The notes: generated by a model from the sequence alone, not told the origin. A stretch of 64,000 bases of DNA from Actinomycetes bacterium (GCA_021791195.1 JAJYXB010000022.1:80245-144244), one strand, 5' to 3'; numbered from the stretch's first letter, positions 14,955 to 38,566 are shown. Made by a program: numbers and translations.

Positions 14955-15131
14955 GCAATATCTTCGGGGCGGGGTGGAATTCCCCACCGGCGGTCAAAGC
15001 CCGCGACCCTCGTCAAGAGGTTGATCAGGTGAAATTCCTGGGCCGACAGTCAAAGTCTGGATGGGAGAAGATATAAGCTCGAATGAGCTTGTGACGCCCT
15101 GGGATAGACGCTGCCCGGGGTTTTTTTATTC
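14955..15131 (+). promoter_or_regulatory. FMN riboswitch (RFN element) with intrinsic-terminator expression platform
   Basis: CTTCGGGGCGGGGTGGAATTCCCCACCGGCGGT...GGTGAAATTCCTGGGCCGACAGTCAAAGTCTGGATGGGAGAAG matches the RFN consensus; followed by CCCTGGG-N10-CCCGGGG hairpin and TTTTTTTATT at 15098..15127. Confidence 0.9.
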
Positions 15132-24991: not shown

Positions 24992-25177
24992 ATGCGCTTA
25001 AGCAAGCAAAAATCCGCGACACACCGCTACCCCTGCCACTGCTGCCACAAGCCGGCCGCTATCGTCTGGCACGACAAGCGCCGGTGCTTCATCTGCGAGA
25101 ACTGCCTGAAGACCTTCGACATCGCCATCATCGCCAGCCGCAACGGCCTGGCGGTGGAGCAACTGACGCTCTGCTGA
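24992..25177 (+). CDS. small Cys-rich (zinc-ribbon-like) hypothetical protein
   Basis: 61 aa, CHCCH...CFICENC; weak SD spacing; sole ORF in a ~1 kb lower-GC noncoding stretch. Confidence 0.3.
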   Translation: MRLSKQKSATHRYPCHCCHKPAAIVWHDKRRCFICENCLKTFDIAIIASRNGLAVEQLTLC

Positions 25178-25422
25178 CGGTTTCCGAGCCTGTGGCGGCG
25201 CTGATTTCAGGAATTTAATCGCGCCCGCTCGAGTTTTTACCGGGCTGCTCAGGAAAGTTTACAGGAACGCTCCCACGCCTCGTTCCGGCGGGCGGGTTTC
25301 GTTTCCACCCTTCCAGAAGATATTATTCCCAGTGTGAAATTCCGGTCCGCCTGCCGCCGGCTGCTTGCCTGCCGCGCGGCCATGGTGGCCGCAATCCCGT
25401 CCACGGCTAACGGAGGTTTCTG

Positions 25423-26469
25423 ATGGCAAAGAAAGTTGCGATACTCACCGGCGGTGGCGACTGCCCGGGCCTGAACGCGGTCATCCGCGCGGCGACGCTG
25501 AAGCTGGTCAGGGCCGGCTACGAGATGGTCGGCGTGCGGCATGGCTGGCGCGGCCTGCTGGAGAATGAATACATGCCGCTGGACATCGAGTCCACCGCTG
25601 ACATCCTCCCGAAGGGCGGCACCATCCTGCGCACATCGCGCACCAACCCGATGAAGCAGGAAGGCGGCGTCGAGCTTATCATTGATAATTTGCAGAAAAA
25701 TGACATCTGGGCGACGATCGCCATCGGCGGCGACGACACCCTCGGCGTGGCCAACAAGCTGCACGCCGAACATTCGCTGAACATGGTGGGCGTGCCCAAG
25801 ACGATCGACAACGACCTCTCCGGCACCGACTATACCTTCGGCTTCGACACGGCGGTGCAGATCGCCACCGATTGCATCGACCGCCTCAACACCACCGCCG
25901 AGTCCCACGACCGCGCGATCGTGGTCGAGATCATGGGGCGGCATACCGGCTGGATCACGGTGATGGCCGGCATCGCCGGCGGCGCAGACGTTGTCATGCT
26001 GCCGGAGTTTGATATTTCCGTCACCGAGGTCTGCGACATCCTCAAGCGCCAGCGCGCGGGCGGCAAGAACTTCAACATCGTCGCCGTCAGCGAGGGCGCC
26101 AAGCTGGTGACCCGGGAGGGCGAGGAGAAAATGGTGGTGCAGTCCGACGAAGTCGATGCTTTCGGCAACGTCAAGCTGGGCGGCGTCGCCGAGCTGCTGG
26201 CCAAGGAGATCGAGCGCCGCACCGGCTTCGAGACGCGCGCGACCGTGCTGGGCCATATCCAGCGCGGCGGCACGCCCACGGCGCGTGACCGCATCCTGGC
26301 TACGCGCTATGGCGCCAGGGCAGCGGACATGGTCATCGCCGGGGACTGGGGCAACATGGCGGCGCTGCAGGGCGACGAGATCGTACCGGTGCCGCTCTCG
26401 GTGGCCGTCGGCGAGCGCAAGCTGGTGCGGCCGGAGTACTGGGACCTGGCGCGCACGTTCTTCGCCTGA
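25423..26469 (+). CDS. pfkA: 6-phosphofructokinase (ATP- or PPi-dependent)
   Basis: MAKKVAILTGGGDCPGLNAV...GGDDTLGVANKL...MGRHTGW motifs. Confidence 0.9.
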   Translation: MAKKVAILTGGGDCPGLNAVIRAATLKLVRAGYEMVGVRHGWRGLLENEYMPLDIESTADILPKGGTILRTSRTNPMKQEGGVELIIDNLQKNDIWATIAIGGDDTLGVANKLHAEHSLNMVGVPKTIDNDLSGTDYTFGFDTAVQIATDCIDRLNTTAESHDRAIVVEIMGRHTGWITVMAGIAGGADVVMLPEFDISVTEVCDILKRQRAGGKNFNIVAVSEGAKLVTREGEEKMVVQSDEVDAFGNVKLGGVAELLAKEIERRTGFETRATVLGHIQRGGTPTARDRILATRYGARAADMVIAGDWGNMAALQGDEIVPVPLSVAVGERKLVRPEYWDLARTFFA

Positions 26470-26474
26470 AACTT

Positions 26475-26646
26475 GGGGACGTTCCTTAACTTATTAAACT
26501 TGTCAGGGTCGCCGAAAGCTAACAGGCGATTGCGCGGAAATCGGGAATATGGATGGAGCAGGCAATCGCGCCCCCGGACGGAGAAGGGAAACCGCGGCTC
26601 TCCTGCAGAGTAACGGAAAAAGTTAAATAAGTTAAGGAACGTCCCC
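26475..26646 (+). promoter_or_regulatory. structured 5' leader: perfect 21-bp inverted repeat (GGGGACGTTCCTTAACTTATT / AATAAGTTAAGGAACGTCCCC) closing a 130-nt segment; the right arm contains the SD and abuts the ATG at 26647
   Basis: Direct sequence inspection; internal GCGATTG/CAATCGC sub-stem; left arm starts 6 nt after the pfkA stop. Confidence 0.5.
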
Positions 26647-29310
26647 ATGAACATTGCCGAGGTCATAGTCGCGCACGCGAACACCGACTTCGACGGCTTT
26701 GCCGCATCGGTGGCGGCCGGCCGGCTGTATCCCGAGGCCCGCATCTGCTTCCCGGGCTCGCTTAACCGCAACGTGCGCGAGTTCTACAATCTGCACGCGG
26801 ACGAGATCGACACCGCCGACGTCTCCATGGTCGACCTGAAGCGCTTGCGCCGGCTGATCATCGTTGACACGATCCACTGCAACCGCCTGGGTGAGTTCGA
26901 GCGCGTCTGCGGCCGCGCGGACGTAGAGGTGATCGTCTTCGATCATCACCGCCTGGGCGCTGTTTCCGAGCGCCCCGATTTCGTCTCCGAAGAAAACTAT
27001 GTCCTCTCCGAGGACGGCTCGCTGGTCACCACCATGCTGAAGATCATCCATGACCGCAAGCTGGAGGTCTCGCCGCTGGAAGCGACCATCTTCGCGCTCG
27101 GCATCCACGAGGACACCGGCTCGCTGACCTATCCGACCACGACCGCGCGCGACGCCGAGGCGCTGGCGCTGTGCATGCGCCTGGGCGCCAGCCAGGCGAT
27201 GATCGTCAAGTATCTGCACAATCCTTTAAGTCCGGAGCAGCGGGAGCTGCTGCTGAAGCTGGTGGACGAGCTGGAGCCGGTGCCGGACGGCGATGTCGAG
27301 GTCTACCTGGCGGCGGTCCACAATCCGGTCTATGTAGAGGGACTCAGTGTCGTGGCGCACAAGATGCTGGACGTCACCGACTGCCAGGCGCTGCTGGTGG
27401 CGGTGGAGATGGAAGACCGTATCTTTATCGTCGGCCGCAGCAAGAGCCGCCTGCTGGATGTCGCCAAGGTGCTGGCCAGCGTCGGCGGCGGCGGCCACAG
27501 CCAGGCAGCCTCGGCAATCGTCAAGGGCCGGAGCCTGGAGCAGGTTCGCCAGACGCTGCTGGCTGCCGTCCCCGGGGTGGTCGAGGAGCCGCTGCGGGCG
27601 CGGGACATCATGTCCCAGCCGGTGCACTTCATCGACGTCCAGACCCCGATCAGGGAGGCTCTGCTGTTCTGCCAGCGCTACGGCCACAGCGGCGTCTCCA
27701 TCAGCGAGGGCGGGCGCCTGGCCGGCGTGGTGGCGCGCAAGGATCTGGACAAGGCGATGGCGCACAAGCTGGGCCATGCGCCGGTCAAGGGGATCATGTC
27801 GCGCGGCGTGGTGACGGTGGCCGAGGATGCGCCTGTGCACGAGATGCGCCGGCTGATGTCCACCAGCACCATCGGCCGCATTCCGGTGGTGCGCCGGGGG
27901 GCGGCAGGGGGTGAAATCCCGGTGGAGGATGTCGTTGGCATCGTCACCCGTACGGACATACTCCGGTCGCTGCACGGGATGGAGGCCGAAGAAACCGTTG
28001 CCGAAGTGCTGCGCACCGAGGTCAATTTCCGCGAGCGGTTGCAGGCGCGCGCCGGGCTGGCGCCGCTGCTAGGGGCCGTCCAGCGCCTGGGCGGCGATTA
28101 CCGCGGCGTGTACCTGGTGGGCGGTTTCGTGCGCGACCTGATCCTGGGGGAACCCAACTATGATGTTGACATCGCGGTGGAAGGTGATGGAATCGAGTTC
28201 GGCCGGCGGCTGGCGGCTGAGCTGGGCGGACGCGTGCGCGCCCATAGCAAGTTCAACACCGCCGTGGTCGTTGTCGAACACGCCGAGCCGCGCCTCCGGG
28301 TGGACGTCGCCACCGCGCGCACCGAATTCTACGATTACCCGGCGGCGCTGCCGACGGTGGAGCATTCCTCCATCAAGCGCGACCTCTACCGCCGCGATTT
28401 CACCATCAACGCCATGGCGGTATCGCTGACCGCGCACGATTTCGGCAAGCTGCTGGATTTCTTCGGCGGGCTCAGGGATCTGGAGGACCGGGTCATCCGC
28501 GTGCTGCACAACCTCAGCTTCATCGAAGACCCGACCCGCATCTTCCGCGCCATCCGTTACGAGAACCGCCTTGGCTTCCGGATGAACCCGCACACGCTGG
28601 GGCTCGCCCGCGGCTGCGTGGAGATGAATCTGGTGGGAGATCTCTCCTCGGCGCGGCTGCGTGACGAGCTCATCTGGTTGTTCTCCGAGCCGGAAGTGGC
28701 GCATACTGTTCTTAGGATCGGTGAGCTGGGCCTGGCGCCCTCGATCCATCCCGCACTGGCCGCTGACGCGGAGACCGCCGCCCTGGTGAAACGCGCCGAT
28801 GAGGCGGTTCGACGCTTCCGGATGCAGGACGAGATCAAGCTCTGGCGTCTACGCCTGGCCTGCCTGGCACGCAAGCTGGACGCCGGCCAGCTGGAGCTGT
28901 GGACGCAGCGTCTCAAACTCCGGCGCACGGACGCCGAGCGGGTCACCACCGGCGTTGTGCTGGCGCGCCAGGCCGCGGTGCGGCTGGCGGCCAGAGCCGG
29001 GGCTTCCCGCGCCGATATCCATGACATGCTCAAGCGGCTGCCGGGAGAGGCGCTGCTGCTGGCATTCGCCGCGGCGGCGGACGGGCGCGCGCGCGATGCT
29101 CTGGAGCTTTACCTGACGGAGCTGCGCCATATCCGGCTGTCGGTCGACGGCTCTGACCTGATCGCGGCGGGGCTGAAGCAGTCGCCGCAGCTGGGCCAGG
29201 TGCTTGCGGAGCTTAAGCGGCTGCGGATCGAAGGCCGGATCGCTGGCCGTGAGCAGGAGCTGGAGGCCGCCCGCAAACTGGCGACCCGGCTGGCCGCGCA
29301 GGAAAAATAG
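26647..29310 (+). CDS. DHH-DHHA1 phosphoesterase / tandem CBS / CCA-adding (polyA polymerase head) nucleotidyltransferase fusion protein
   Basis: DHH motif FDHHRL; DHHA1 GGGGHSQAAS; two CBS repeats; GGFVRDLILG...DVDIAV nucleotidyltransferase motif plus RNA-binding tail. Confidence 0.8.
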   Translation: MNIAEVIVAHANTDFDGFAASVAAGRLYPEARICFPGSLNRNVREFYNLHADEIDTADVSMVDLKRLRRLIIVDTIHCNRLGEFERVCGRADVEVIVFDHHRLGAVSERPDFVSEENYVLSEDGSLVTTMLKIIHDRKLEVSPLEATIFALGIHEDTGSLTYPTTTARDAEALALCMRLGASQAMIVKYLHNPLSPEQRELLLKLVDELEPVPDGDVEVYLAAVHNPVYVEGLSVVAHKMLDVTDCQALLVAVEMEDRIFIVGRSKSRLLDVAKVLASVGGGGHSQAASAIVKGRSLEQVRQTLLAAVPGVVEEPLRARDIMSQPVHFIDVQTPIREALLFCQRYGHSGVSISEGGRLAGVVARKDLDKAMAHKLGHAPVKGIMSRGVVTVAEDAPVHEMRRLMSTSTIGRIPVVRRGAAGGEIPVEDVVGIVTRTDILRSLHGMEAEETVAEVLRTEVNFRERLQARAGLAPLLGAVQRLGGDYRGVYLVGGFVRDLILGEPNYDVDIAVEGDGIEFGRRLAAELGGRVRAHSKFNTAVVVVEHAEPRLRVDVATARTEFYDYPAALPTVEHSSIKRDLYRRDFTINAMAVSLTAHDFGKLLDFFGGLRDLEDRVIRVLHNLSFIEDPTRIFRAIRYENRLGFRMNPHTLGLARGCVEMNLVGDLSSARLRDELIWLFSEPEVAHTVLRIGELGLAPSIHPALAADAETAALVKRADEAVRRFRMQDEIKLWRLRLACLARKLDAGQLELWTQRLKLRRTDAERVTTGVVLARQAAVRLAARAGASRADIHDMLKRLPGEALLLAFAAAADGRARDALELYLTELRHIRLSVDGSDLIAAGLKQSPQLGQVLAELKRLRIEGRIAGREQELEAARKLATRLAAQEK

Positions 29311-29367
29311 GAAAAATAATAATCATGGCCTGACGCAGGCCAGTACACGCAAGGCAGGATAGTTTGA

Positions 29368-30018
29368 ATGTTTACCAGTGATTTGTTGCTACAGTTTCTG
29401 ATCACGCTGCCGGCGCTGCTGATATCGATGGTGCTGCACGAGGTGTCGCACGGCTACGTGGCCTACCGCCTGGGTGACCGTACGGCGAGGCAGCGGGGGC
29501 GGCTCTCGCTCAACCCGCTCAAGCACCTGGACAAGCTCGGCTCGCTGATGCTGTGCATCACCTATTTCGGCTCCGGCGGCAGCATGCTGTTCGGCTGGGC
29601 CAAGCCGGTGCCGATCAATCCCGGCAATTTCAAGGATCCCCAGCGGGGGATGATGTGGGTGGGCGCTGCCGGCCCGGCTGCCAATCTGCTGATCGCCATC
29701 GCCAGCGCGCTGGCGCTCAAGATGGCCTATCCCTATCCGGTGGACAGCAACCTGTTCATGGCGCTGTTCCTGGTGTTCCGGCTCAACCTGATCCTGATGG
29801 TGTTCAACCTCATCCCGGTGCCGCCGCTGGACGGCTCGCGCATCGTGGGCGGTTTTCTCAGCCGGCAGGCGTACGTGCGCTGGATCCAGATGGACCAGTA
29901 CGGGATGATGTTCGTCATGCTGCTGATGTTCGTGCTGATCGGCCCCCTGGGTGCGGGTTTCTCCAGCTTCTTCGCCAGCCTCTACCACATCTTCCTGCCT
30001 GCCTCCTACGGATTTTAG
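29368..30018 (+). CDS. site-2 protease family (peptidase M50B-like) membrane metalloprotease
   Basis: HEVSHG (HExxH) in TM1, LNPLKHLD motif, multi-TM. Confidence 0.75.
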   Translation: MFTSDLLLQFLITLPALLISMVLHEVSHGYVAYRLGDRTARQRGRLSLNPLKHLDKLGSLMLCITYFGSGGSMLFGWAKPVPINPGNFKDPQRGMMWVGAAGPAANLLIAIASALALKMAYPYPVDSNLFMALFLVFRLNLILMVFNLIPVPPLDGSRIVGGFLSRQAYVRWIQMDQYGMMFVMLLMFVLIGPLGAGFSSFFASLYHIFLPASYGF

Positions 30019-30103
30019 GGCGGGGACGTTGCTTTCCTAAAGTTCCTATTTTAGAGGGTAGGGCGGGGACGTTGCTTTCCTAAAGTTCCTGTTTTAGAGG
30101 GAA
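30018..30103. repeat. two tandem direct 43-bp repeats (GGGCGGGGACGTTGCTTTCCTAAAGTTCCTRTTTTAGAGGG)
   Basis: Copies at 30018..30060 and 30061..30103 with one mismatch; they begin at the stop codon of the M50 protease gene. Confidence 0.85.
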
Positions 30104-30250
30104 GGAACGCTCTTGGCTGCAGTTTCCTGTTATTGAATGGATCCAGCGTCGGGCGGTTTTCGCACAGAGGAACGTTCTCGGACGTCCACGGCGAATCCGG
30201 CAGATCTCCAGCAGATCACACTGCCGCCCATTAGTTTCCCCTTATATTTA

Positions 30251-30330
30251 GGAACTTTAGGAAAGCAACGTCCCTGGTTTGGGACGCGGTTTTGGAACTT
30301 TAGGAAAGCAACGTCCCCGGTTTGGGACAG
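30251..30330. repeat. two inverted copies of the same repeat (GGAACTTTAGGAAAGCAACGTCCC), each followed by GTCCC-N6-GGGAC palindromes
   Basis: 30251..30274 and 30295..30319 are reverse complements of the 30018/30061 repeats; palindromes CGTCCCTGGTTTGGGACG (30269..30286) and GTCCCCGGTTTGGGAC (30313..30328). Confidence 0.85.
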
Positions 30331-30377
30331 GCCCCGGAGGGGGAAATCAGTCGTGGTGGCGAGTTCTGGAGCGGATC

Positions 30378-33300
30378 ATGGGCGATTGCATGGAGGGGTT
30401 TCCGGAGGCCGGCGAGCGGCTGTTTCGCATACTGGCATTTGACTGGGACGGCACCGCGGTGCCGGATCGCCATGCCGATGCCCGCCGGGTGGCCGCGGTG
30501 CTTCAGCAGCTGCTGAAGCTGGACGTGCTGGTGGCCGTCATCACCGGCACCAATTTCGAGAACATCGACCGGCAGCTTTGCTCCCTGATCCACGGTACCC
30601 ACAAGCGGCGGCTTTACGTATGCGCCAACCGTGGTTCGGAAGTTTTCGGCTTCGACATCGATGGCAATGTCACGCTGCTTTTCAGGCGGGAAGCGACACC
30701 GGACGAGAACAGGCTGCTGGACCGCATCGCCCAGGCGGTCAAAAGTGACATCGAGAGCCTGTCCAGCGTCGGCATCAACATCATCTACGACCGGCTCAAC
30801 CGCCGCAAGGTCGACCTGATCCCCGAATGGCCAGATCCGCCGAAGTCACGCATCGATGAACTGATGGCCAGAACCGAGGCGCGCCTGAAGCAGGGCGGCT
30901 ACAGCGGCGGCATCCACGGCGCCTACGAGCTGACGCTGCATTACGCCCGGCGCTTCGGCCTGAAAAACGCGCGCGTCACCAGCGACGTCAAGCACATCGA
31001 GGTGGGCCTCACCGACAAATCCGACTCGATCCGCTGGGTCATCAGCCAGCTGTGCTACCGGCGCAATATCCCCTTCCGGAACATGCTGGTGGGAGGGGAT
31101 GAGTTCGGTAATGTGGCCGGTTTCGAGGGCAGCGATTCGCACATGATCGTGCCCGAGCTCGGCGGAGATTCCTATATCGTGTCGGTGGGGAAGGAGCCTG
31201 ACGGCGTGCCGCCGGGGGTAACCCACCTGCCCGGCGGGCCCGACTGTTTCATCAGCCTGCTGGAGCGGCAGGTCGCGCTGCATCGGCTGATGCTGCCCAG
31301 CGAGGATGTGACGGCGCTGCTGGTGGAGAACGGCTTCAATCCGCTCCGGGAACGCGAGGTCGAGTCGCTGCTGGCTGTCGGCAACGGTTATCTCGGCACC
31401 CGTGGCTCGCTCGAGGAGCAGGATCCGGCGTCCAGCGCCGCCACGCTGCTGGCCGGCGTTTATGACCGGACGAGCAGGGAATCGATCGAGGAGCTTGTGG
31501 TCGTTCCTGACTGGCTGTATACGCGTATCTACGTCAATAACATCCAGCTGACCGCCGGGCGCCAGAATCTGCTGGAGCACCGGCGGGTGCTGGACATGTC
31601 CAAGGGCATGCTTTTCCGCGAGTGGCGCCACCGGGACCGGGAGAACCGCGTTACCCGCATCCGTTTCATCCGGTTCGCCTCGCTGGCGGATCCGCATCTG
31701 CTGGTGGAGCGGCTGGTGGTGGTTCCGGAGAATTACAGCGGGAAGCTGCGGGTGGAGACCGGGCTCAGGATCTGCGAGGGTTGCCCGCCCGAGCTGACCG
31801 TGACGGCCGCGGCCGGCGCCGAGCCGCCGGAAGATGAAGCGGCCAGGCGGGCGGCAGGGAGCGCGTCAGCCGGCGCGGAGCCGGAAAGCGGCGTCCGTGT
31901 CAGCGCCACCACGGTCCATACCGGCATCGCCCTGGCCCAGCGGCAGCAGAGCCGCCCCGCGGCCGGCTTCATCAACATGCGCCATTCCACTGCTGCCGGC
32001 GGTTTTGGCGCTATCGAGCGCTGGCGCTGGCGGGCGGCGGCGGGACAGCCGGTCACCATCGACAAATACGTGAGCGTCTTCACTTCGCGCGAGAGTACGG
32101 CGCCGGACCGCGAGGCGGCCGCGGCCACGGAGCGGCTGGCCGGGCTGGGCTTCCGGCCGCTTGCCCTGCAGCAGATCGGCGCCTGGCGCGACCGGCTGGC
32201 AACGGCGGCGGTCACCGTGGACGACAATGACAGCCAGCAATGGCTCAACTTCGCCCTTTATCACCTCATCAGCGCCGGGAATCCCCATGACGAGCGCAGC
32301 TCGATCAGCGCCCGCGCGCTTACCGGCTCCATTTACAAGGGACATATATTCTGGGACGCGGAGATGTTTATCCTGCCATTCTTCATCTTCACGCATCCGC
32401 CGACCGCGCGGGCGATGCTGCTGTACCGTTTCCATACGCTGGCGGCCGCCCGCGAGAATGCGCTGCGAAAGGGATATGCGGGCGCGCTGTTTGCCTGGGA
32501 AGCGACCGGCGGCGGTGAAGACATGACTCCCGCCGCCGTCGTCGATCCCCGGGGCGAGATCGTGCCGGTGCTGTCGGGCAAGCTGGAGCATCACATCAGC
32601 GCCGCGGTCGCCTGGGGCGCCTGGTCTTACTGGAATGCCAGCGGCGATGAAGGGTTCCTGGTGGGCGCCGGCGCCGAGCTGCTGATCGAAACGGCGCGCT
32701 TCTGGGCCAGCCGGGTCACCGAGGTCGATGGCAGTTTCCACATCCTCGGAGTCGAGGGCCCCGATGAATATCACGATGAAGGCGTCGATGACAACTATTA
32801 CACCAACGCCATGGCCCGCTGGAATCTGCGGCGGGCGGCGGAAGTGGTAGAGCGGCTGAAGCGTCTGCATCCGGATGAGTGGCAGCTGCTTGCCGCCAAG
32901 CTCGGCTTCGACATCGGCGAGCCCCAGCGGTGGCTGCGCGTGGCCGGCGGCATGTTCATGGGCGCCGCGGACACCGGCTCCGGCAAGAGCGCCTCGGCGG
33001 CCGGCGCGGGCGCCGCGCCGGTGGAGCAGTTTCGCGGCTACTTCGAGCTGGAGGACATCGACGTCTCCGCCTTCGGGTCCCATGTGGGACCGCTGGACGT
33101 TTTGCTCGGTCATGAACGCACGGTCGCCTCGCAGGTCGTCAAGCAGGCCGATGTGGTGATGGCGCTCTACCTGCTGGAAGAGGAGCTCGGCGCGGGCGCC
33201 ATCGAAGCCAGCTTCGATTACTACGAACCGCGAACGGTGCACGGCAGCTCGCTCTCACCCGCCATTCATGGGCTGGTGGCCGCCCGCCTGGGCCGGCTGG

Positions 33301-33725
33301 AAAACGCATGGAGCTATTTCAGCCGCGCCGCCCGCATCGACCTGGCCCACGGCAACGCCGCCGGCGGCATCCACGTCGCCGCGCTCGGCGGCCTGTGGCA
33401 GCAGGTTGTCATGGGCTTTGCCGGGGTCAGGACCAGCAGGGAGGGGGTCTTCGTCTATCCGCACCTGCCGGAGCGGTGGGGGACGATGGCTTTCACGCTG
33501 GCATGGCGCGGGCTGCAGCTCCGCTTCGCGGCCGAGCGCGGCCGCCGGCTGAGACTTGAGCTTGCCGGCGAGGGCGAGGCGATGGTGGGAATAAAAGGTT
33601 TGGAGCTGCAGGCAATGACTGGAGGCCGGAGTTACACCGCGTTCTGGCAGGGTGGCCGCTGGCAGGCCTTCTCGCCGGCAGAGGGCGCCGTAACGGCCGC
33701 CGGCATCCAGGAGGACAAGGCATGA
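30378..33725 (+). CDS. OtsB1-like fusion protein: N-terminal HAD-type trehalose-phosphatase-like domain + glycoside hydrolase family 65 (N-terminal, catalytic, C-terminal domains)
   Basis: FDWDGT HAD motif I; GH65 signatures (HIFWDAEMFILPFF, general-acid region); start moved to the ATG at 30378, downstream of the repeat array (ORF track 30279). Confidence 0.8.
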   Translation: MGDCMEGFPEAGERLFRILAFDWDGTAVPDRHADARRVAAVLQQLLKLDVLVAVITGTNFENIDRQLCSLIHGTHKRRLYVCANRGSEVFGFDIDGNVTLLFRREATPDENRLLDRIAQAVKSDIESLSSVGINIIYDRLNRRKVDLIPEWPDPPKSRIDELMARTEARLKQGGYSGGIHGAYELTLHYARRFGLKNARVTSDVKHIEVGLTDKSDSIRWVISQLCYRRNIPFRNMLVGGDEFGNVAGFEGSDSHMIVPELGGDSYIVSVGKEPDGVPPGVTHLPGGPDCFISLLERQVALHRLMLPSEDVTALLVENGFNPLREREVESLLAVGNGYLGTRGSLEEQDPASSAATLLAGVYDRTSRESIEELVVVPDWLYTRIYVNNIQLTAGRQNLLEHRRVLDMSKGMLFREWRHRDRENRVTRIRFIRFASLADPHLLVERLVVVPENYSGKLRVETGLRICEGCPPELTVTAAAGAEPPEDEAARRAAGSASAGAEPESGVRVSATTVHTGIALAQRQQSRPAAGFINMRHSTAAGGFGAIERWRWRAAAGQPVTIDKYVSVFTSRESTAPDREAAAATERLAGLGFRPLALQQIGAWRDRLATAAVTVDDNDSQQWLNFALYHLISAGNPHDERSSISARALTGSIYKGHIFWDAEMFILPFFIFTHPPTARAMLLYRFHTLAAARENALRKGYAGALFAWEATGGGEDMTPAAVVDPRGEIVPVLSGKLEHHISAAVAWGAWSYWNASGDEGFLVGAGAELLIETARFWASRVTEVDGSFHILGVEGPDEYHDEGVDDNYYTNAMARWNLRRAAEVVERLKRLHPDEWQLLAAKLGFDIGEPQRWLRVAGGMFMGAADTGSGKSASAAGAGAAPVEQFRGYFELEDIDVSAFGSHVGPLDVLLGHERTVASQVVKQADVVMALYLLEEELGAGAIEASFDYYEPRTVHGSSLSPAIHGLVAARLGRLENAWSYFSRAARIDLAHGNAAGGIHVAALGGLWQQVVMGFAGVRTSREGVFVYPHLPERWGTMAFTLAWRGLQLRFAAERGRRLRLELAGEGEAMVGIKGLELQAMTGGRSYTAFWQGGRWQAFSPAEGAVTAAGIQEDKA

Positions 33726-34582
33726 ACACCAACCGGAAGAAACCAGCGGGCAACGGGGCGGCCGTGGTCCTGCCGCTGGACGGCTCGCGCACGGCCGTGC
33801 GCGCTTTCGGCGCCGCCCGTGCGGTCACGCGGATGCTGGGCGCCCGCCTGCACGTGATCTACGTCAGCGAGAAGCCGGTGCCGGCGGCGGAGCTGCCGCG
33901 GCTGCTCCATATCGAGGCCGGAGGCGGCCGCATCCGGTTCCATCAGATTTCCGGCGAGACCGTCAGCGCCATCATCCGCTTTGCTGTCGGAGTGGACGCG
34001 AGCATGATCGTCATGTCCAGCCACGGCAGGACGCACAATACGCGGCAGATGGCCGGCGGCGTGGCCATGCGCCTGATCCAGCACACCGACATCCCGGTGA
34101 TGGTGATCCGGCCGCGCAAACAGGTGCCCGGCGCTGACTGGCGCCCGCGCCGCATGCTGGTGCCTCATGACGGCTCGCCTGTCACCGCCGGCGAAGTGGA
34201 GCAGATATTCAACCTGGCTTGTGCGATGGAGGTGGATATCGACGTGCTGCATGTGGGCATGATCGGCGCCCGGCCGCCGGTGGGGGTGGGGGCCATGGAC
34301 GGCCCGCGCTACCTGGACCGGCCGCATTATGACTGGCCCGGCTGGGCGGACGAGTTCCTGCGCCGGTTTGCCGCGCGCCCCGGTGAATCCAAGGTGCGGC
34401 TGATCTACCAACCCGGTGAGATCGTCGATGCGGCGCTCGATTACGCCGCCCAGAACCGCGACGACGTGATCGCGCTGATTTGGCACGGGATGCTGGGAGG
34501 CAAGCGGGCGGCCAGCGTCAAGGGGATCCTGATGAACGCCGAGGTGCCGGTGCTGCTGAAGCGGATCCGCGGCGGGACTTAG
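33722..34582 (+). CDS. universal stress protein (tandem UspA domains)
   Basis: Two Usp-like halves (LHVIYV..., VLHV...PVLL); start overlaps the stop of the preceding gene. Confidence 0.85.
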   Translation: MNTNRKKPAGNGAAVVLPLDGSRTAVRAFGAARAVTRMLGARLHVIYVSEKPVPAAELPRLLHIEAGGGRIRFHQISGETVSAIIRFAVGVDASMIVMSSHGRTHNTRQMAGGVAMRLIQHTDIPVMVIRPRKQVPGADWRPRRMLVPHDGSPVTAGEVEQIFNLACAMEVDIDVLHVGMIGARPPVGVGAMDGPRYLDRPHYDWPGWADEFLRRFAARPGESKVRLIYQPGEIVDAALDYAAQNRDDVIALIWHGMLGGKRAASVKGILMNAEVPVLLKRIRGGT

Positions 34583-34583
34583 G

Positions 34584-34913
34584 TCAGGAGGCCTTGCGCG
34601 CGCCCATGCGTTCGAATTCGACCAGCATGCGGCTGTAGGGTATCTCCCAGATATTGAGCAGCTTCTCGCCGATCATGAGCATGCCGGGTTCGAGCCGCCC
34701 TTCGGTCACCCGCTGGTAGACCTCCGGATACTCCTTGAGCTCCGGCGAATCGAAATCGACATACCTGAGCTTGGCGGTGCCGCCGAAATCCTCCATCAGC
34801 TGGCGGTTGATCGTTTCGGTGATCTCTTCCAGAGACCAGCTGGGGCCTCAGCCGCCAGAACAGGAGTCCAGATAGCGCGACCCGAAGACCGGGATTATTG
34901 ATTCATAAGTCAC
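34584..34913 (-). CDS. candidate selenoprotein: YuzD/DUF1462-like thioredoxin-fold protein with an in-frame UGA (Sec) codon at 34848..34850
   Basis: GGAGG SD, 8-nt spacer, GTG at 34913; translation VTYESIIPVFGSRYLDSCSGG-U-GPSWSLEEITETINRQLMEDFGG... continues in frame into the 70-aa ORF of the track; hairpin GGUCUCU-GGA-AGAGAUC (34821..34837) begins 10 nt after the UGA. Confidence 0.5.
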
Positions 34914-35027
34914 GGAAATTACCTCCTCAGATTCCCTAAGTGCTCATAAGTTTCGGTGAGCGGCCAACGATTCTTTAGACATCCGCGTCCGCTAAAAGTT
35001 TCAGAAGCGTTCAGACCCTCCGGGATT

Positions 35028-36059
35028 TTACAACCGCCGGAGCGTTTTCGCCAGCCGCCAGCCGTCGGCGCCTGTCACTTCCAGCGCCTGCTCCTCGCCA
35101 CTCTCTTCGCCGCGGCGGCGCCAGCCGACCATGATCTTCTCCTGCTCGCGCGCCTGCCCGTAGCGGGCGGTGAGCGCGGCCGCTTCGGCAAGCGCGGCGT
35201 CGTCGGCGTCCCCCTTGATGACGGCAGTGGGCCCCATCGCCGACAGCGCGCTCATGAGGACGTCACCGGGCTGCGCCAGGGCCTCCAGCCTCCTGGTCTC
35301 GTCCTCGTTGCGCGGGATGATGATCTTGCGGCCGCTGGATGAGATGAACAGCCGGCCCAGCTTCAGGGACTGGATGTCGGCCAGCGGCGGCTCGGGATCC
35401 TCGTCCAGCAGCAGCCGCAGCCGGGCGGCGAAGTTGCGGTCGCAGAGCAGGCAGCCGCCGGCGGGGCAAGGGTAGTCGTTCACGCCCAGCTCGGCCGCCA
35501 GCTGGATCTGGGGCTTGCGCGAGCGCCCTTCGATCGCCATCATCCGTTCGCGGTCCACCCAGCCTTCGCGCTCGGGCAGGCTGGGTTCGAACAGGTGTGC
35601 CGACAGTGGCCTGACGATCAGATCCTCCAGCCCGGATTCGCGCTCGATGGTGCGCATGGCGTCCGGGCGCTGCGACATCGGCCGTTCGCCCCAGACCTCG
35701 CCGGTGACGACGAAGTCAGCGCCGCTCTGCTGCATGTAGGCGCGCGCCCGCCTGAGCATGCTGATGCGGCAGTCGAGGCAGGGGTTGATGCCGCGGCCGA
35801 ATCCGTGGCGGGCATCCCTGATCGCCGCCAAAATCTCCCGGGTGGCGTTGAGCACCTTCAGCGGGATGCCGTATTCCTCGGCGGCCTTGCGCGCCTCGGA
35901 CTTGCAGCTGCTCTTGGCCGTGCAGGTGCAGAAGGCGGTAACGAAGTTGACCGCCTCCAGCCCGATGCCCTGGTCGAGCATCATCTTCACTGCCAGGCGG
36001 CTGTCCAGCCCGCCGGAGAGCAGGATGATCGCCTTGCGCTTTTTCTTTTCCATGGTCAT
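35028..36059 (-). CDS. PP-loop superfamily ATPase, Cys-rich (tRNA thiolation / sulfur-transferase type, TtuA/MnmA-like)
   Basis: N-terminal AIILLSGGLDSRLA PP-loop; CTC, NPCLDC and CPAGGCLLC cysteine clusters. Confidence 0.6.
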   Translation of the reverse strand: MTMEKKKRKAIILLSGGLDSRLAVKMMLDQGIGLEAVNFVTAFCTCTAKSSCKSEARKAAEEYGIPLKVLNATREILAAIRDARHGFGRGINPCLDCRISMLRRARAYMQQSGADFVVTGEVWGERPMSQRPDAMRTIERESGLEDLIVRPLSAHLFEPSLPEREGWVDRERMMAIEGRSRKPQIQLAAELGVNDYPCPAGGCLLCDRNFAARLRLLLDEDPEPPLADIQSLKLGRLFISSSGRKIIIPRNEDETRRLEALAQPGDVLMSALSAMGPTAVIKGDADDAALAEAAALTARYGQAREQEKIMVGWRRRGEESGEEQALEVTGADGWRLAKTLRRL

Positions 36060-36082
36060 TTTAATATATATCAGATATCTGG

Positions 36083-36595
36083 TTAAAAATCCCTGTTAGC
36101 CGGCAGCTCCCGGTCCGGCCGCCCGCGCCGGGCGAATTCCTCGTCGCTCAGCACCTCGATTCCGGCGCGCTGGAAGAGTGCGGCGGTGACGCCATCCCCC
36201 CGGCGCCGGGCGCCGCTGAAACTGCCGTCATAGATCTCGCCGCGGCCGCATGACGGACTTCTCGCTTTCAGGATGGCCTGGCGGCAGCCGTGCCGCTGCG
36301 CGATTTCCAGCGCCCGTCGCGCTCCTTCCAGAAAGCGCTCCGTGAGATCACGGCCGCTTTTGGAAACCACGCTCGCCTTGCCGTCCAGCACATCGGCGCC
36401 GTCACCGCCCTCGATCTCCGCCGTTTCCCTTGGGGTGCGCATGCCGGAGAGCTGTTCGGGGCAGACGGGGATCGCCCGCCCGTCCTCCACCAGCCTTCTG
36501 ACTGGCTCCGACAGCCGGGCGCGGCCGTCATGACTGCAGGGCATCCCGGCCGTGCAGCCGCTGACGATCATCTTTCCGGAAAGGAGCTGGCTCAT
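36083..36595 (-). CDS. DUF523 family protein (TudS-like [4Fe-4S] thionucleobase desulfidase family)
   Basis: MIVSGCTAGMPCSHDG N-terminus matches the DUF523 ILVSACLLGxxCRYDG signature; conserved Cys ligands (CPEQL, SPSCG). Confidence 0.75.
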   Translation of the reverse strand: MSQLLSGKMIVSGCTAGMPCSHDGRARLSEPVRRLVEDGRAIPVCPEQLSGMRTPRETAEIEGGDGADVLDGKASVVSKSGRDLTERFLEGARRALEIAQRHGCRQAILKARSPSCGRGEIYDGSFSGARRRGDGVTAALFQRAGIEVLSDEEFARRGRPDRELPANRDF

Positions 36596-36979
36596 CTTTG
36601 AAGAAAAGGAGAGGACAATCCTCTGATTGCAAAATAGCAGATAAGAAACTGGTAGTAAAACTCGTAAGAAAGTTGTAAATTTTCTGGCGGGCAGAGCTTG
36701 CGATTGCTATACTTTCTTATTCTTCGGCTGGGCCAAACGTTAGGCCAGGAACCGCTTTCCCGGGTTTCAGCATTTCAGAGGATGTGCCTGCGGCGGAAAA
36801 ATAAATTTTCGCGGGGGGTTTGGCAGGCGCCGGGCCGGGTATTTTATAGCCACTTTTCCGGGCATCCGTGCTGACCGGCAGAGTAAATTTGCCGCAGCGG
36901 GCGCGAGGATAATCAGCCAAACTCCGGCAGGACGGACAAACTGAGCAGAGAAGCAGCCAAACAAGCTGGGTTTCCCAAA

Positions 36980-38350
36980 GTGCACTGGCTCAAATCGCTG
37001 GCGCCGGTCAAGCTTGCGGCGCTGATCGGAGCCGCGGTGATGGCGCTGCTTATCATTGCCGCCGTCATGGCGGTCGTCGTGTTTCCTCCAGGGATATCGA
37101 TCAACCCGGGCGACAAGGCCACCGAGATCAAGCCTGCCGACCAGGGCCTGGATATCGGCACCAGCAGCTGGGGTGCTTCGATTGCCTCGGTCACCGTTAC
37201 GCAGCAGGACGTCGCTCCGGACGGCACGCTGGGCGCCAGCCGCCTCGTCAATGGCCAGCTCAAGGATGGCCATTTCGTCACCAGTGACGGCGCCAATCCG
37301 CTCAAGCCGGACGAACAGTACACCGTCACGGTCGACGGCACCGTCAAGAAGCTTGGCATCACTGGCATCAGCTCCCGGCAGGTCGAGCAGACCTCTACTT
37401 TCAGAACCGTGACGACGCCGATGCCGGTAATCCCCCAGGGCGGCCTCGTGGTCAAGTTCGGCGAGGATCTGAAGCTGCAGTGGAACGTCCCCGTCAGCAG
37501 TTTCAAATATCAGCTGGACGGCATCCAGAGCACATCGACCCTGTCTGGCGACGGGAAGACGGCGACCATCAAGCTGGCGAGCTTCGAGCAGGGCAAGAAG
37601 TACCAGCTCACGGTCACCTCCGCGACCTCGAAAAACGGCGTGGACATGAACCAGCCGATCGCCACGACCGTCAGCACGCCCGCCGGCCTCAGCGTGGCTT
37701 TCGATCCGGCTGACAACTCCAGCCGCGCCAGCACCGATGTCTATCCCACGGTGAACTTCTCCGAAGCGGTTGCGAATCCGGATGCGGCCCAGCAGTTGGT
37801 GAGCGTCGATCCCAAGGTCGGCGGCAGTTTCCACTGGGCGTCGCCGAACAAGCTGCAGTTCGTGCCGGCGAAGGAATGGGACCACCTGCAGGATGTGACC
37901 ATCCGCGTCAGGGGCGGCGTGCAGGGATTCCGGGGCGTCAGCGGCGGATATATCGACAGTGACCAGCAGGCGACTTTCACGACCGCCCCGGCCAAGTCAA
38001 TCGACGTCAACGTCACGACTGAGAGAGTGACGCTGCTGGAAAACGGAAATCCCATTGACTCATTCTTGTGCGCCAGCGGCGCCAACAACACCCCGACCCC
38101 GCTGGGTGACTTCACTATCTATGCCAAGCTGCCCGCCGTCGATATGCGAGGCCCTGGCTATTTTGCCCCGCACGTGCCCTGGGTGATGGTGTTCGACGGC
38201 GACTACACGCTGCACGGCAACTACTGGAACACGACCTTTGGTGTCAGGGGGTCAGGGGGCAGCCATGGCTGCGTGGGAATGCCTCCCGCCACCGCCAAGC
38301 GCGTTTATGACTGGGCGCCGCTCGGCACGCCGGTTCACATTCACGAATAG
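36980..38350 (+). CDS. L,D-transpeptidase with N-terminal TM anchor and Ig-like (Big) domains
   Basis: C-terminal YkuD catalytic domain with HGCVGM active-site Cys; N-terminal signal/TM. Confidence 0.8.
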   Translation: MHWLKSLAPVKLAALIGAAVMALLIIAAVMAVVVFPPGISINPGDKATEIKPADQGLDIGTSSWGASIASVTVTQQDVAPDGTLGASRLVNGQLKDGHFVTSDGANPLKPDEQYTVTVDGTVKKLGITGISSRQVEQTSTFRTVTTPMPVIPQGGLVVKFGEDLKLQWNVPVSSFKYQLDGIQSTSTLSGDGKTATIKLASFEQGKKYQLTVTSATSKNGVDMNQPIATTVSTPAGLSVAFDPADNSSRASTDVYPTVNFSEAVANPDAAQQLVSVDPKVGGSFHWASPNKLQFVPAKEWDHLQDVTIRVRGGVQGFRGVSGGYIDSDQQATFTTAPAKSIDVNVTTERVTLLENGNPIDSFLCASGANNTPTPLGDFTIYAKLPAVDMRGPGYFAPHVPWVMVFDGDYTLHGNYWNTTFGVRGSGGSHGCVGMPPATAKRVYDWAPLGTPVHIHE

Positions 38351-38425
38351 AACCCTCGCGGCCGGCGTGCGGGAGGCTCTCCCATCCGCGGGCGCGAACG
38401 CGTCACACCTTCATTCAATATCATG

Positions 38426-38456
38426 GCCCGGCGCCGGCCGGGCTGATATATTTATG
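38426..38456 (+). terminator. possible terminator after the L,D-transpeptidase gene
   Basis: GCCCGGC-GCCG-GCCGGGC hairpin followed by TGATATATTTAT. Confidence 0.4.
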
Positions 38457-38526
38457 GATACGACATTCTTTTCAGCCGATCCTGAGGCCGGCGTTACGCA
38501 GGATGACGATCTGCTGCGGATCGTTT

Positions 38527-38548
38527 GGAAAGGAACGTCCCCTGGTTT
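38527..38548 (+). repeat. single copy of the GGAAAGGAACGTCCCCTGGTTT motif in the corA 5' leader
   Basis: Identical 12-mer core AGGAACGTCCCC to 26635..26646; lies 19 nt upstream of the corA ATG. Confidence 0.6.
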
Positions 38549-38566
38549 CCCGATCCAAGGAACAGC

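Follow-up and report, generated by a model that had tools for sequence, protein, structure and literature searches.

Paired intergenic repeats in an uncultured Thermoleophilia-like actinobacterium, probably a low-copy MITE- or REPIN-like palindromic element

Among well-studied bacteria, small palindromic repeats between genes are common. Repetitive extragenic palindromic (REP) doublets, or REPINs, are extragenic palindromes mobilised by RAYT transposases and have been described in Pseudomonas and enterobacteria. They are short non-coding inverted doublets that form hairpins, accompanied by single units and tandem clusters; the hairpin has a conserved foot and a variable upper part, they often lie just past stop codons, and their families are lineage-specific. 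MITEs (miniature inverted-repeat transposable elements), such as the Correia elements of Neisseria, enterobacterial ERIC and pneumococcal RUP and BOX, are non-coding elements of 60–300 bp that have conserved termini with terminal inverted repeats of about 25–30 nt and are inserted between the genes of operons. They differ in presence or absence at the same intergenic site in related genomes, and they form long mRNA hairpins that RNase III can cleave or that alter mRNA stability or translation. Thermoleophilia are known mostly from metagenomes, and to our knowledge small palindromic intergenic repeats are essentially undescribed in this group. Here we describe a family of paired repeat arms in a 64-kb stretch of DNA from an Actinomycetes bacterium (JAJYXB010000022.1, positions 80245–144244; hereafter the window, within which all positions are counted). 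The family resembles both REPINs and MITEs in these respects, and we favour the reading that it is a low-copy palindromic element of this general type. Elements of this kind are well known in other bacteria; the present family, and its occurrence in this lineage, are new.

The initial annotation of the window had drawn attention to a 12-nt motif in the leader regions of four operons. At up to one mismatch, AGGAACGTCCCC has eight matches in the window where 0.29 are expected, and none of 100 shuffles reached eight. The form GGAAAGSAACGTCCC occurs exactly at five sites, AGGAACGYYC gives six matches, all intergenic, where 0.5 are expected, and all ten sites of AG(G/C)AACGYYC fall into four neighbouring intergenic regions between 25.2 and 38.5 kb. 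The copies exist where they had been placed, apart from small offsets (30018 and 30061, for example, correspond to 30022–30033 and 30065–30076). The regions and the copies are as follows.

25178–25422, 26470–26646, 30019–30377 and 38351–38566: the four motif-bearing intergenic regions
26475–26486 (minus strand), 26635–26646 (plus strand) and 38531–38542 (plus strand): copies of AGGAACGTCCCC
30022–30033 (minus strand), 30065–30076 (minus strand) and 30307–30318 (plus strand): copies of AGCAACGTCCCC
30264–30275 (plus strand): copy of AGCAACGTCCCT
25263–25286 (plus strand): degenerate copy AGGAACGCTCCC with the inverted repeat GGAACG-N11-CGTTCC, about 140–160 nt upstream of the pfkA start and matching AGGAACGYYC

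The proteins encoded at these regions are PFK, a CCA enzyme of the DHH-DHHA1-CBS-poly(A) polymerase type, an M50 peptidase, a GH65 protein that carries a DxDGT (HAD-like) motif at its N terminus, a universal stress protein (USP) and CorA, which bears out the identifications made earlier. The accompanying statement that no copies occur elsewhere in the 64 kb was nearly right. Two one-mismatch matches to AGGAACGTCCCC lie in coding sequence, at 1262 (minus strand) and 37481 (plus strand), and a profile of the whole arm lends them no support (E about 5). Because of that E-value, the match at 37481–37492 (TGGAACGTCCCC, 11 of 12 positions), which lies on the plus strand 1 kb upstream of the corA copy, within an L,D-transpeptidase gene, is probably due to chance. 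About 12 kb of additional flank from the same genome contained no further copy.

Overlooked before were the arms of 25–30 nt, of which the 12-mer makes up no more than the outer end, and their organisation in inverted pairs. The arms end in ..A-G-(G/C)-AACGTCCCC and are mostly arranged as inverted pairs; solitary and tandem arms also occur. Every inverted pair carries the conserved core at its outer end, in the layout GGGGACGTT(G/C)C ... G(C/G)AACGTCCCC, and encloses unrelated sequence of 11 to about 250 nt. Measured between core ends the elements span 61–295 bp, and they contain no open reading frames (ORFs) or Pfam matches. Arms are 23–30/30 identical within pairs and thus form terminal inverted repeats bounding a short non-coding element, as in MITEs. 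The repertoire of hairpin-forming doublets (26474–26647 and, at other loci described below, L037, L024, L040/L044 and L043), a cluster (30016–30328), a singlet (38518–38542) and a direct tandem (L042) is that of REPs and REPINs. The arms and inner segments in the window are listed here.

26474–26501, minus strand: left arm of the 26-kb pair, subtype A, 28 nt, 96% complementary to its partner (nhmmer E = 1.2e-6)
26502–26619, no strand: inner segment of the 26-kb pair, 118 nt, without similarity to the inner segments of other copies
26620–26647, plus strand: right arm of the 26-kb pair, abutting the ATG (26647) of the gene for the DHH-CBS-CCA-adding enzyme
30016–30101, minus strand: left tandem units of the 30-kb region, subtype B, with arms at 30021–30046 and 30064–30089 (direct repeat, 98% identity)
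30103–30188, plus strand: inner segment of the 30-kb region with two decayed cores, AGGAACGCTC at 30103 and AGGAACGTTCTCGGACGTCC at 30168–30187
30247–30328, plus strand: right tandem units of the 30-kb region, with arms at 30249–30274 and 30294–30319 (direct repeat, 95%)
38518–38542, plus strand: solitary arm, subtype B-like, GGATCGTTTGGAAAGGAACGTCCCC (nhmmer E = 2.5e-5)

The left arm of the 26-kb pair starts 5 nt past the pfkA stop codon (26467–26469), and the right arm supplies an AAGGA sequence (26634–26638) that precedes the CCA-enzyme ATG by 8 nt. The 30-kb region consists of two 43-nt tandem units facing two further 43-nt tandem units, an arrangement missed previously. Its left units begin where the M50 peptidase gene ends, at the stop codon, and its arms of 25–26 nt are 100% complementary in an inverted-repeat search. 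Each right arm is followed by a local GTCCC-N6-GGGAC hairpin, and the last right arm ends 59 nt before the ATG of the HAD-GH65 gene (30378). As reported earlier, GTCCC-N6-GGGAC occurs in two copies; the window holds exactly these two occurrences, both at 30.3 kb (30270–30285 and 30313–30328). The GGAACGTTC..GGACGTCC palindrome noted before is likewise present, at 30169–30188. Between the end of the solitary arm (38518–38542) and the corA ATG (38567) there are 24 nt, and a canonical terminator (38424–38445) lies upstream of this arm. The degenerate copy at 25263–25286, also noted before, shares the 10-mer AGGAACGCTC with position 30103; because the arm profile does not detect it, we read it as a weak or decayed copy.

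Folded as RNA, the paired copies form strong hairpins. Positions 26466–26660 fold at −72.1 kcal/mol (z = −4.6) with the arms paired, positions 30010–30385 fold at −172.7 kcal/mol (z = −7.1) as a nested double stem, and the pair hairpins in L037, L040, L024 and L043 reach z-scores of −8.6 to −11.3. The solitary arm at 38518–38542 has no significant structure (z = −0.25). Single arms do not pair with themselves, neither at 38518–38542 nor in L042, so the unit palindrome typical of REPs is absent from these folds.

Members of the family occur at unrelated loci, beside unrelated genes, in metagenome contigs from other Actinomycetota. A scan of GTDB representative genomes with TTWGGAAAGSAACGTCCC, a set that excludes the species of the window, returned mostly chance matches, several of them ribosome-binding-site-like 'AAGGAACGTCCC-ATG' contexts, and one true relative. 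This pair (L024, on a contig of a metagenome-assembled genome, MAG) lies between divergent archease and Rrf2-cysK genes, its arms are 24/25 identical to those of the 30-kb region, and a near-consensus sigma-70 promoter (TTGACA-N17-TATAAT) follows directly downstream of, and outside, its right arm. A scan of JGI metagenomes with a fairly strict pattern found L040, L042, L043 and L044, together with two chance matches, L039 (in a coding region) and L041. The L040/L044 pair takes up precisely the interval that separates the stop codons of two convergent genes, which is not a promoter position. In L042, two arms in direct tandem precede a TPR gene by about 50 nt, and L043 is a further inverted pair. 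There was no match to the family among viral contigs or plasmids, and literature searches on the motif sequence and on actinobacterial MITEs turned up nothing relevant. The family is restricted to a lineage of Thermoleophilia-like Actinomycetota. Proteins identical to those of the window were found in several MAG and metagenome assemblies, their best-named homologues belong to Thermoleophilia/Actinomycetota MAGs, and these protein matches identify the host as a presumptive uncultured Thermoleophilia bacterium.

The GTDB scan also hit eight near-identical copies of a stretch of more than 130 nt in the chromosome of Lacipirellula limnantheis (L011–L014, L018, L022, L027 and L029). These match the pattern through their ribosome-binding region (TTTGGAAAGGAACGTCCC-ATG) and are unrelated to the element; the stretch is probably a multicopy gene or an insertion sequence.

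Arm positions 1–8 and 10–11 are invariant across six independent pairs. By contrast, 11 of the 24 arm positions carry different Watson–Crick pairs at different loci, which means that the two arms of a pair change together. There are three arm subtypes, each occurring in different organisms: subtype A is common to the window and L043, and subtype C to L037, L040/L044 and L042. The genes downstream of the copies have no common function across organisms.

We also compared the syntenic regions of seven relatives, whose CCA enzymes are 70–76% identical to that of the window. The arm profile finds the family in one of the seven, L037, in the same gap between pfkA and the CCA-enzyme gene; this copy has 27-nt arms, an 11-nt loop (z = −8.6) and an arm subtype unlike those of the window. 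In a tree of the CCA enzymes the window groups with L036 and L045, and L037 groups with L038, yet L036, L045 and L038 are without the element by the arm profile, as is L051, which with L036 and L045 counts among the window's closest relatives. The pfkA–CCA gap measures 177 nt (window) and 79 nt (L037) with the element, and 8 nt (L045), 26 nt (L046) and 67 nt (L051) without it. This orthologous site thus shows the polymorphism of presence and absence expected of a MITE. Judged from these sequences, the pattern is best explained by independent gains or repeated loss, not by a conserved regulatory site. The motif is missing upstream of corA, GH65-USP and pfkA in every relative, although the genes themselves are there: GH65-USP in L036, L045 and L051, corA in L037 and L038, and pfkA in all. 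The element does not, as far as the relatives indicate, appear to be maintained upstream of particular genes. A long inverted repeat of L036's own in the pfkA–CCA gap was considered and not borne out (z = 0.39); the same gap of L038 holds an unrelated 18-bp hairpin.

That non-homologous loci in different organisms share long identical arms indicates copying, and not independent evolution as binding sites. The outward-facing conserved ends, the co-variation of paired arms, the position of some copies at gene 3′ ends, and the identity of both arms in two strains, L040 and L044, around a scrambled loop also favour a small repeat element. We consider it probable that the 12-nt motif is the outer end of a low-copy MITE/REPIN-like palindromic element, which probably acts at the RNA level when transcribed. 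With its inverted arms, patchy distribution and unrelated neighbours, the family comes close to what the initial annotation had offered as a fallback, a small MITE-like element sitting in leaders. How the element moves and acts we infer as follows. It would spread into intergenic DNA by copying and insertion or by duplication, in the manner of MITEs or REPINs. The window copies are probably transcribed, since they fill gaps between co-directional genes, and their transcripts would form RNA hairpins of 26–30 bp. Such a hairpin could be a stable 3′-end or termination structure that protects or ends the message of the upstream gene, or an RNase III-type processing site. It might also mask the downstream ribosome-binding site, a role proposed because the arm at 26620–26647 itself provides the AAGGA Shine–Dalgarno sequence of the CCA-enzyme gene.

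Recognising the family guards against its annotation as a regulon signal. It also flags two operon junctions, pfkA/CCA-enzyme and M50/GH65-USP, at which a 26–30-bp hairpin probably shapes mRNA processing and downstream translation. Finally, the repeat accounts for an assembly break: a Logan contig of the same species (L005) ends inside the first left arm of the 30-kb region, with L005 6320–6347 corresponding to window positions 30019–30046, and assemblies appear to break at this repeat.

Several observations weigh against a MITE/REPIN-like element. The copies are few and clustered: about 76 kb of genome holds them in four intergenic regions that lie next to one another, and there are only three true loci in the JGI metagenome scan and one among the GTDB representatives. 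No target-site duplication was found at any copy (flanks at 26.5 and 30 kb and in L037, L024, L040 and L043). Unlike in typical MITE families, the inner segments of the copies share no homology, and no parent insertion sequence with matching ends was identified. Unlike those of classical REPs, the individual arms are not self-complementary, and the distance between them varies widely, from 11 to about 250 nt. The loci, to which the survey for such genes was confined, contained neither a transposase nor a RAYT gene. The hairpins at 26.6 kb and in L037 are not followed by a U-tract and are therefore not classical intrinsic terminators. Simple transposition does not account for the 43-nt period that the two sides of the 30-kb region share. 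In addition, solitary and direct-tandem arms (38518–38542, L042 and 30247–30328) lie 24–60 nt upstream of start codons, in gene orientation, a position that would suit an operator or promoter-proximal element as well.

This last point leads to the alternative that survives best, in which the arms are operators of an unknown DNA-binding protein. Each arm would be one site. Inverted and tandem sites spaced 60–300 bp would permit cooperative binding or DNA looping at the promoters of a local regulon made up of pfkA, the CCA-enzyme gene, GH65-USP and corA. The 12-nt core is invariant in all copies, all copies are intergenic and they cluster within 13 kb; solitary or tandem arms point to starts 0–60 nt away (26647, 30378, 38567, L042 and the archease gene of L024), the L024 promoter follows directly on its right arm, and the 43-nt phasing at 30 kb is close to four helical turns. 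We nevertheless hold the operator explanation to be unlikely. The arms of a pair co-vary outside the core, for which independent operators have no reason, and arm identity spans 25 nt between non-homologous loci of different organisms. The convergent gene ends around the L040/L044 pair, the lack of conservation of the motif ahead of orthologous genes in six of the seven relatives, the lack of a regulator gene nearby and the lack of a shared function among downstream genes all speak against it as well.

A second alternative, which we regard as rather improbable, holds that the hairpins evolved locally and never moved, as factor-independent or bidirectional terminators, mRNA 3′-end stabilisers or RNase III sites separating the genes of operons. 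It differs from the MITE/REPIN-like reading mainly in origin, and a role at the RNA level is part of both. Left arms lie 3–10 nt past the stop codon at 26474, at 30021 and in L037, L040 and L044, the stems are very stable and the changes in them are compensatory. A stable, GC-footed hairpin directly after stop codons, situated in L040/L044 between convergent genes and with short U-rich flanks, is reminiscent of an intrinsic or bidirectional terminator, and besides the U-rich tails at L040/L044 there is a U-rich GGTTT(T) after several arms. However, the stems are longer (26–30 bp) than in intrinsic terminators, with large loops and mostly without a U-tract, as at 26.6 kb and in L037, and, of the element hairpins, a terminator consensus scan picks out just the small GTCCC-N6-GGGAC hairpin (minus strand). 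What is conserved across loci and organisms is the sequence itself and not only the structure. Local evolution leaves unexplained why unrelated loci in different organisms carry 25-nt arms that are nearly identical, and why there are solitary and direct-tandem arms, which form no hairpin; the L024 copy, moreover, lies between divergent starts.

A more far-reaching reading, to which we attach little confidence, is that a dedicated protein of this lineage reads the invariant duplex foot GGGGACGTT/AACGTCCCC and that the element is a portable cis-regulatory module. The reader may be a domesticated HUH/RAYT-like nuclease, a recombinase or a regulator that binds double-stranded RNA or DNA. If so, it would serve as a compact and portable module for regulation or mobility, coupling or uncoupling the expression of neighbouring genes of central metabolism and stress (pfkA, CCA-adding enzyme, GH65-USP and corA), and both the clustering of the copies and the phasing of the 43-nt tandem arms would be explained.

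It is highly improbable that the arms bound invertons, in which a recombinase flips the segments 26502–26619 and about 30090–30248 and thereby switches the downstream genes. Conserved inverted repeats do flank segments of 118 and about 160 nt directly upstream of genes. Furthermore, L040 (530–575) and L044 (4035–4078), whose flanking genes are about 96–97% identical, have both 32-nt arms identical around a scrambled 33-nt loop; the L044 loop matches the L040 loop better in reverse complement (22/33) than as it stands (20/37 with gaps), and it may have been flipped, replaced or hypermutated. Yet independent assemblies of the window's species, six for the 26-kb region and three for the 30-kb region, present a single orientation and identical sequence. 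In four of the six family members the enclosed segment is only 11–45 nt, a length that allows neither flipping nor a promoter; no sigma-70-like promoter was detected in the enclosed segments of the window copies, and there is no recombinase gene nearby.

The regulatory reading first put forward for the motif, a cis-element of a hypoxia/dormancy regulon under a DosR/DevR regulator of the NarL/LuxR family, can be rejected with near certainty. In M. tuberculosis, Rv2005c and Rv2006 are DevR targets, and the Dev box is an 18–20-bp palindrome in which G3, G4, G5 and C7 are conserved in each half (a GGGNC-N4-GNCCC core) and which occurs in two or more directly adjacent copies upstream of regulated promoters (PMC3177182). 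The proposed parallel with Rv2005c and Rv2006 is real in gene content, as a gene for an HAD-GH65 (Rv2006-like) protein adjoins that for USP and the M. tuberculosis box lies upstream of USP and otsB1-like genes, and a GGGAC-type pentamer (GGGAC/GTCCC) is common to both motifs. It does not extend to the DNA element: GGGNC-N4-GNCCC has no match on either strand of the window, where 3.35 are expected, and GTCCC-N6-GGGAC, which is everted relative to the Dev box, is present in only 2 of about 11 element copies. Pentamers here are everted or 60–300 nt apart, whereas Dev box halves lie in adjacent tandem boxes. The element is not conserved with the genes, being missing upstream of GH65-USP in L036, L045 and L051, and elsewhere the family adjoins unrelated genes, including the 3′ ends of convergent ones. 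A search for a DosR/NarL-type regulator and its kinase, suggested as a check, found no response regulator or sensor kinase encoded in the window or in its flanks of about 12 kb.

Other identities were tried and set aside. An extracytoplasmic-function sigma factor promoter (GGAAC ... CGTC) is at odds with the 13-nt spacing, which is too short, and with the lack of a conserved −10 partner downstream of the arms; a SigB/SigF-like GGTTT-N15-GGG(G/T)A fits only the copy at 30319–30348. Neither sigma-54 sites nor CcpA cre, Rex, LexA, CggR or IdeR/DtxR half-sites fit the full motif or its symmetry, and the core as a 10-bp palindrome, GGRACGTYCC, fits only the G variants, the AGCAAC variants breaking the symmetry. 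Tn3-type 38-bp ends (GGGG...TAAG) are mismatched at the inner end. The four intergenic regions have no Rfam match, either at the gathering threshold or at E ≤ 5, and attC sites, retrons, riboswitches and ribozymes also lack a matching gene context.

The surroundings of the element vary among the relatives. In L036 (13440–13730) and L045 (13368–13586) the M50–GH65 gap holds not the motif but other small hairpin repeats (GGCACAGGCYTNNAGCCTGTGC, CTCCCAAAGGCAG..CTGCC), and lineage-specific palindromes seem to accumulate in this gap. Gene content at this position varies: only the window, L036, L045 and L051 have GH65-USP, and a second PFK gene follows the M50 gene in L037 (13433–14407), L038 (13361–14335) and L051 (5449–6423). 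An insertion of about 8 kb in L047 (2021–10000), carrying genes for Fic, RhuM-like, HTH_23/29 and glutaminyl/glutamyl-tRNA synthetase proteins, splits pfkA from the CCA-enzyme gene; the pfkA–CCA junction is therefore again a site of rearrangement. Upstream of pfkA, the window encodes a 61-residue cysteine-rich ORF (CxCC...CxxC; 24992–25177, plus strand) that is conserved and belongs to no Pfam family, and an ORF of 59–65 residues is called at the same place in most relatives.

Farther from the element, strains of the same species diverge after the 6-phosphogluconate dehydrogenase gene (window position about 48100 onward), as seen in L032 compared with L033 and the window: Band_7 genes follow on the opposite strand in one strain, and a glucose-6-phosphate dehydrogenase gene follows in the window and L033. 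An FMN riboswitch (RF00050, 117.8 bits) occupies 14956–15076 on the plus strand, directly upstream of a riboflavin operon (ribD, lumazine-binding protein, ribBA and ribH).

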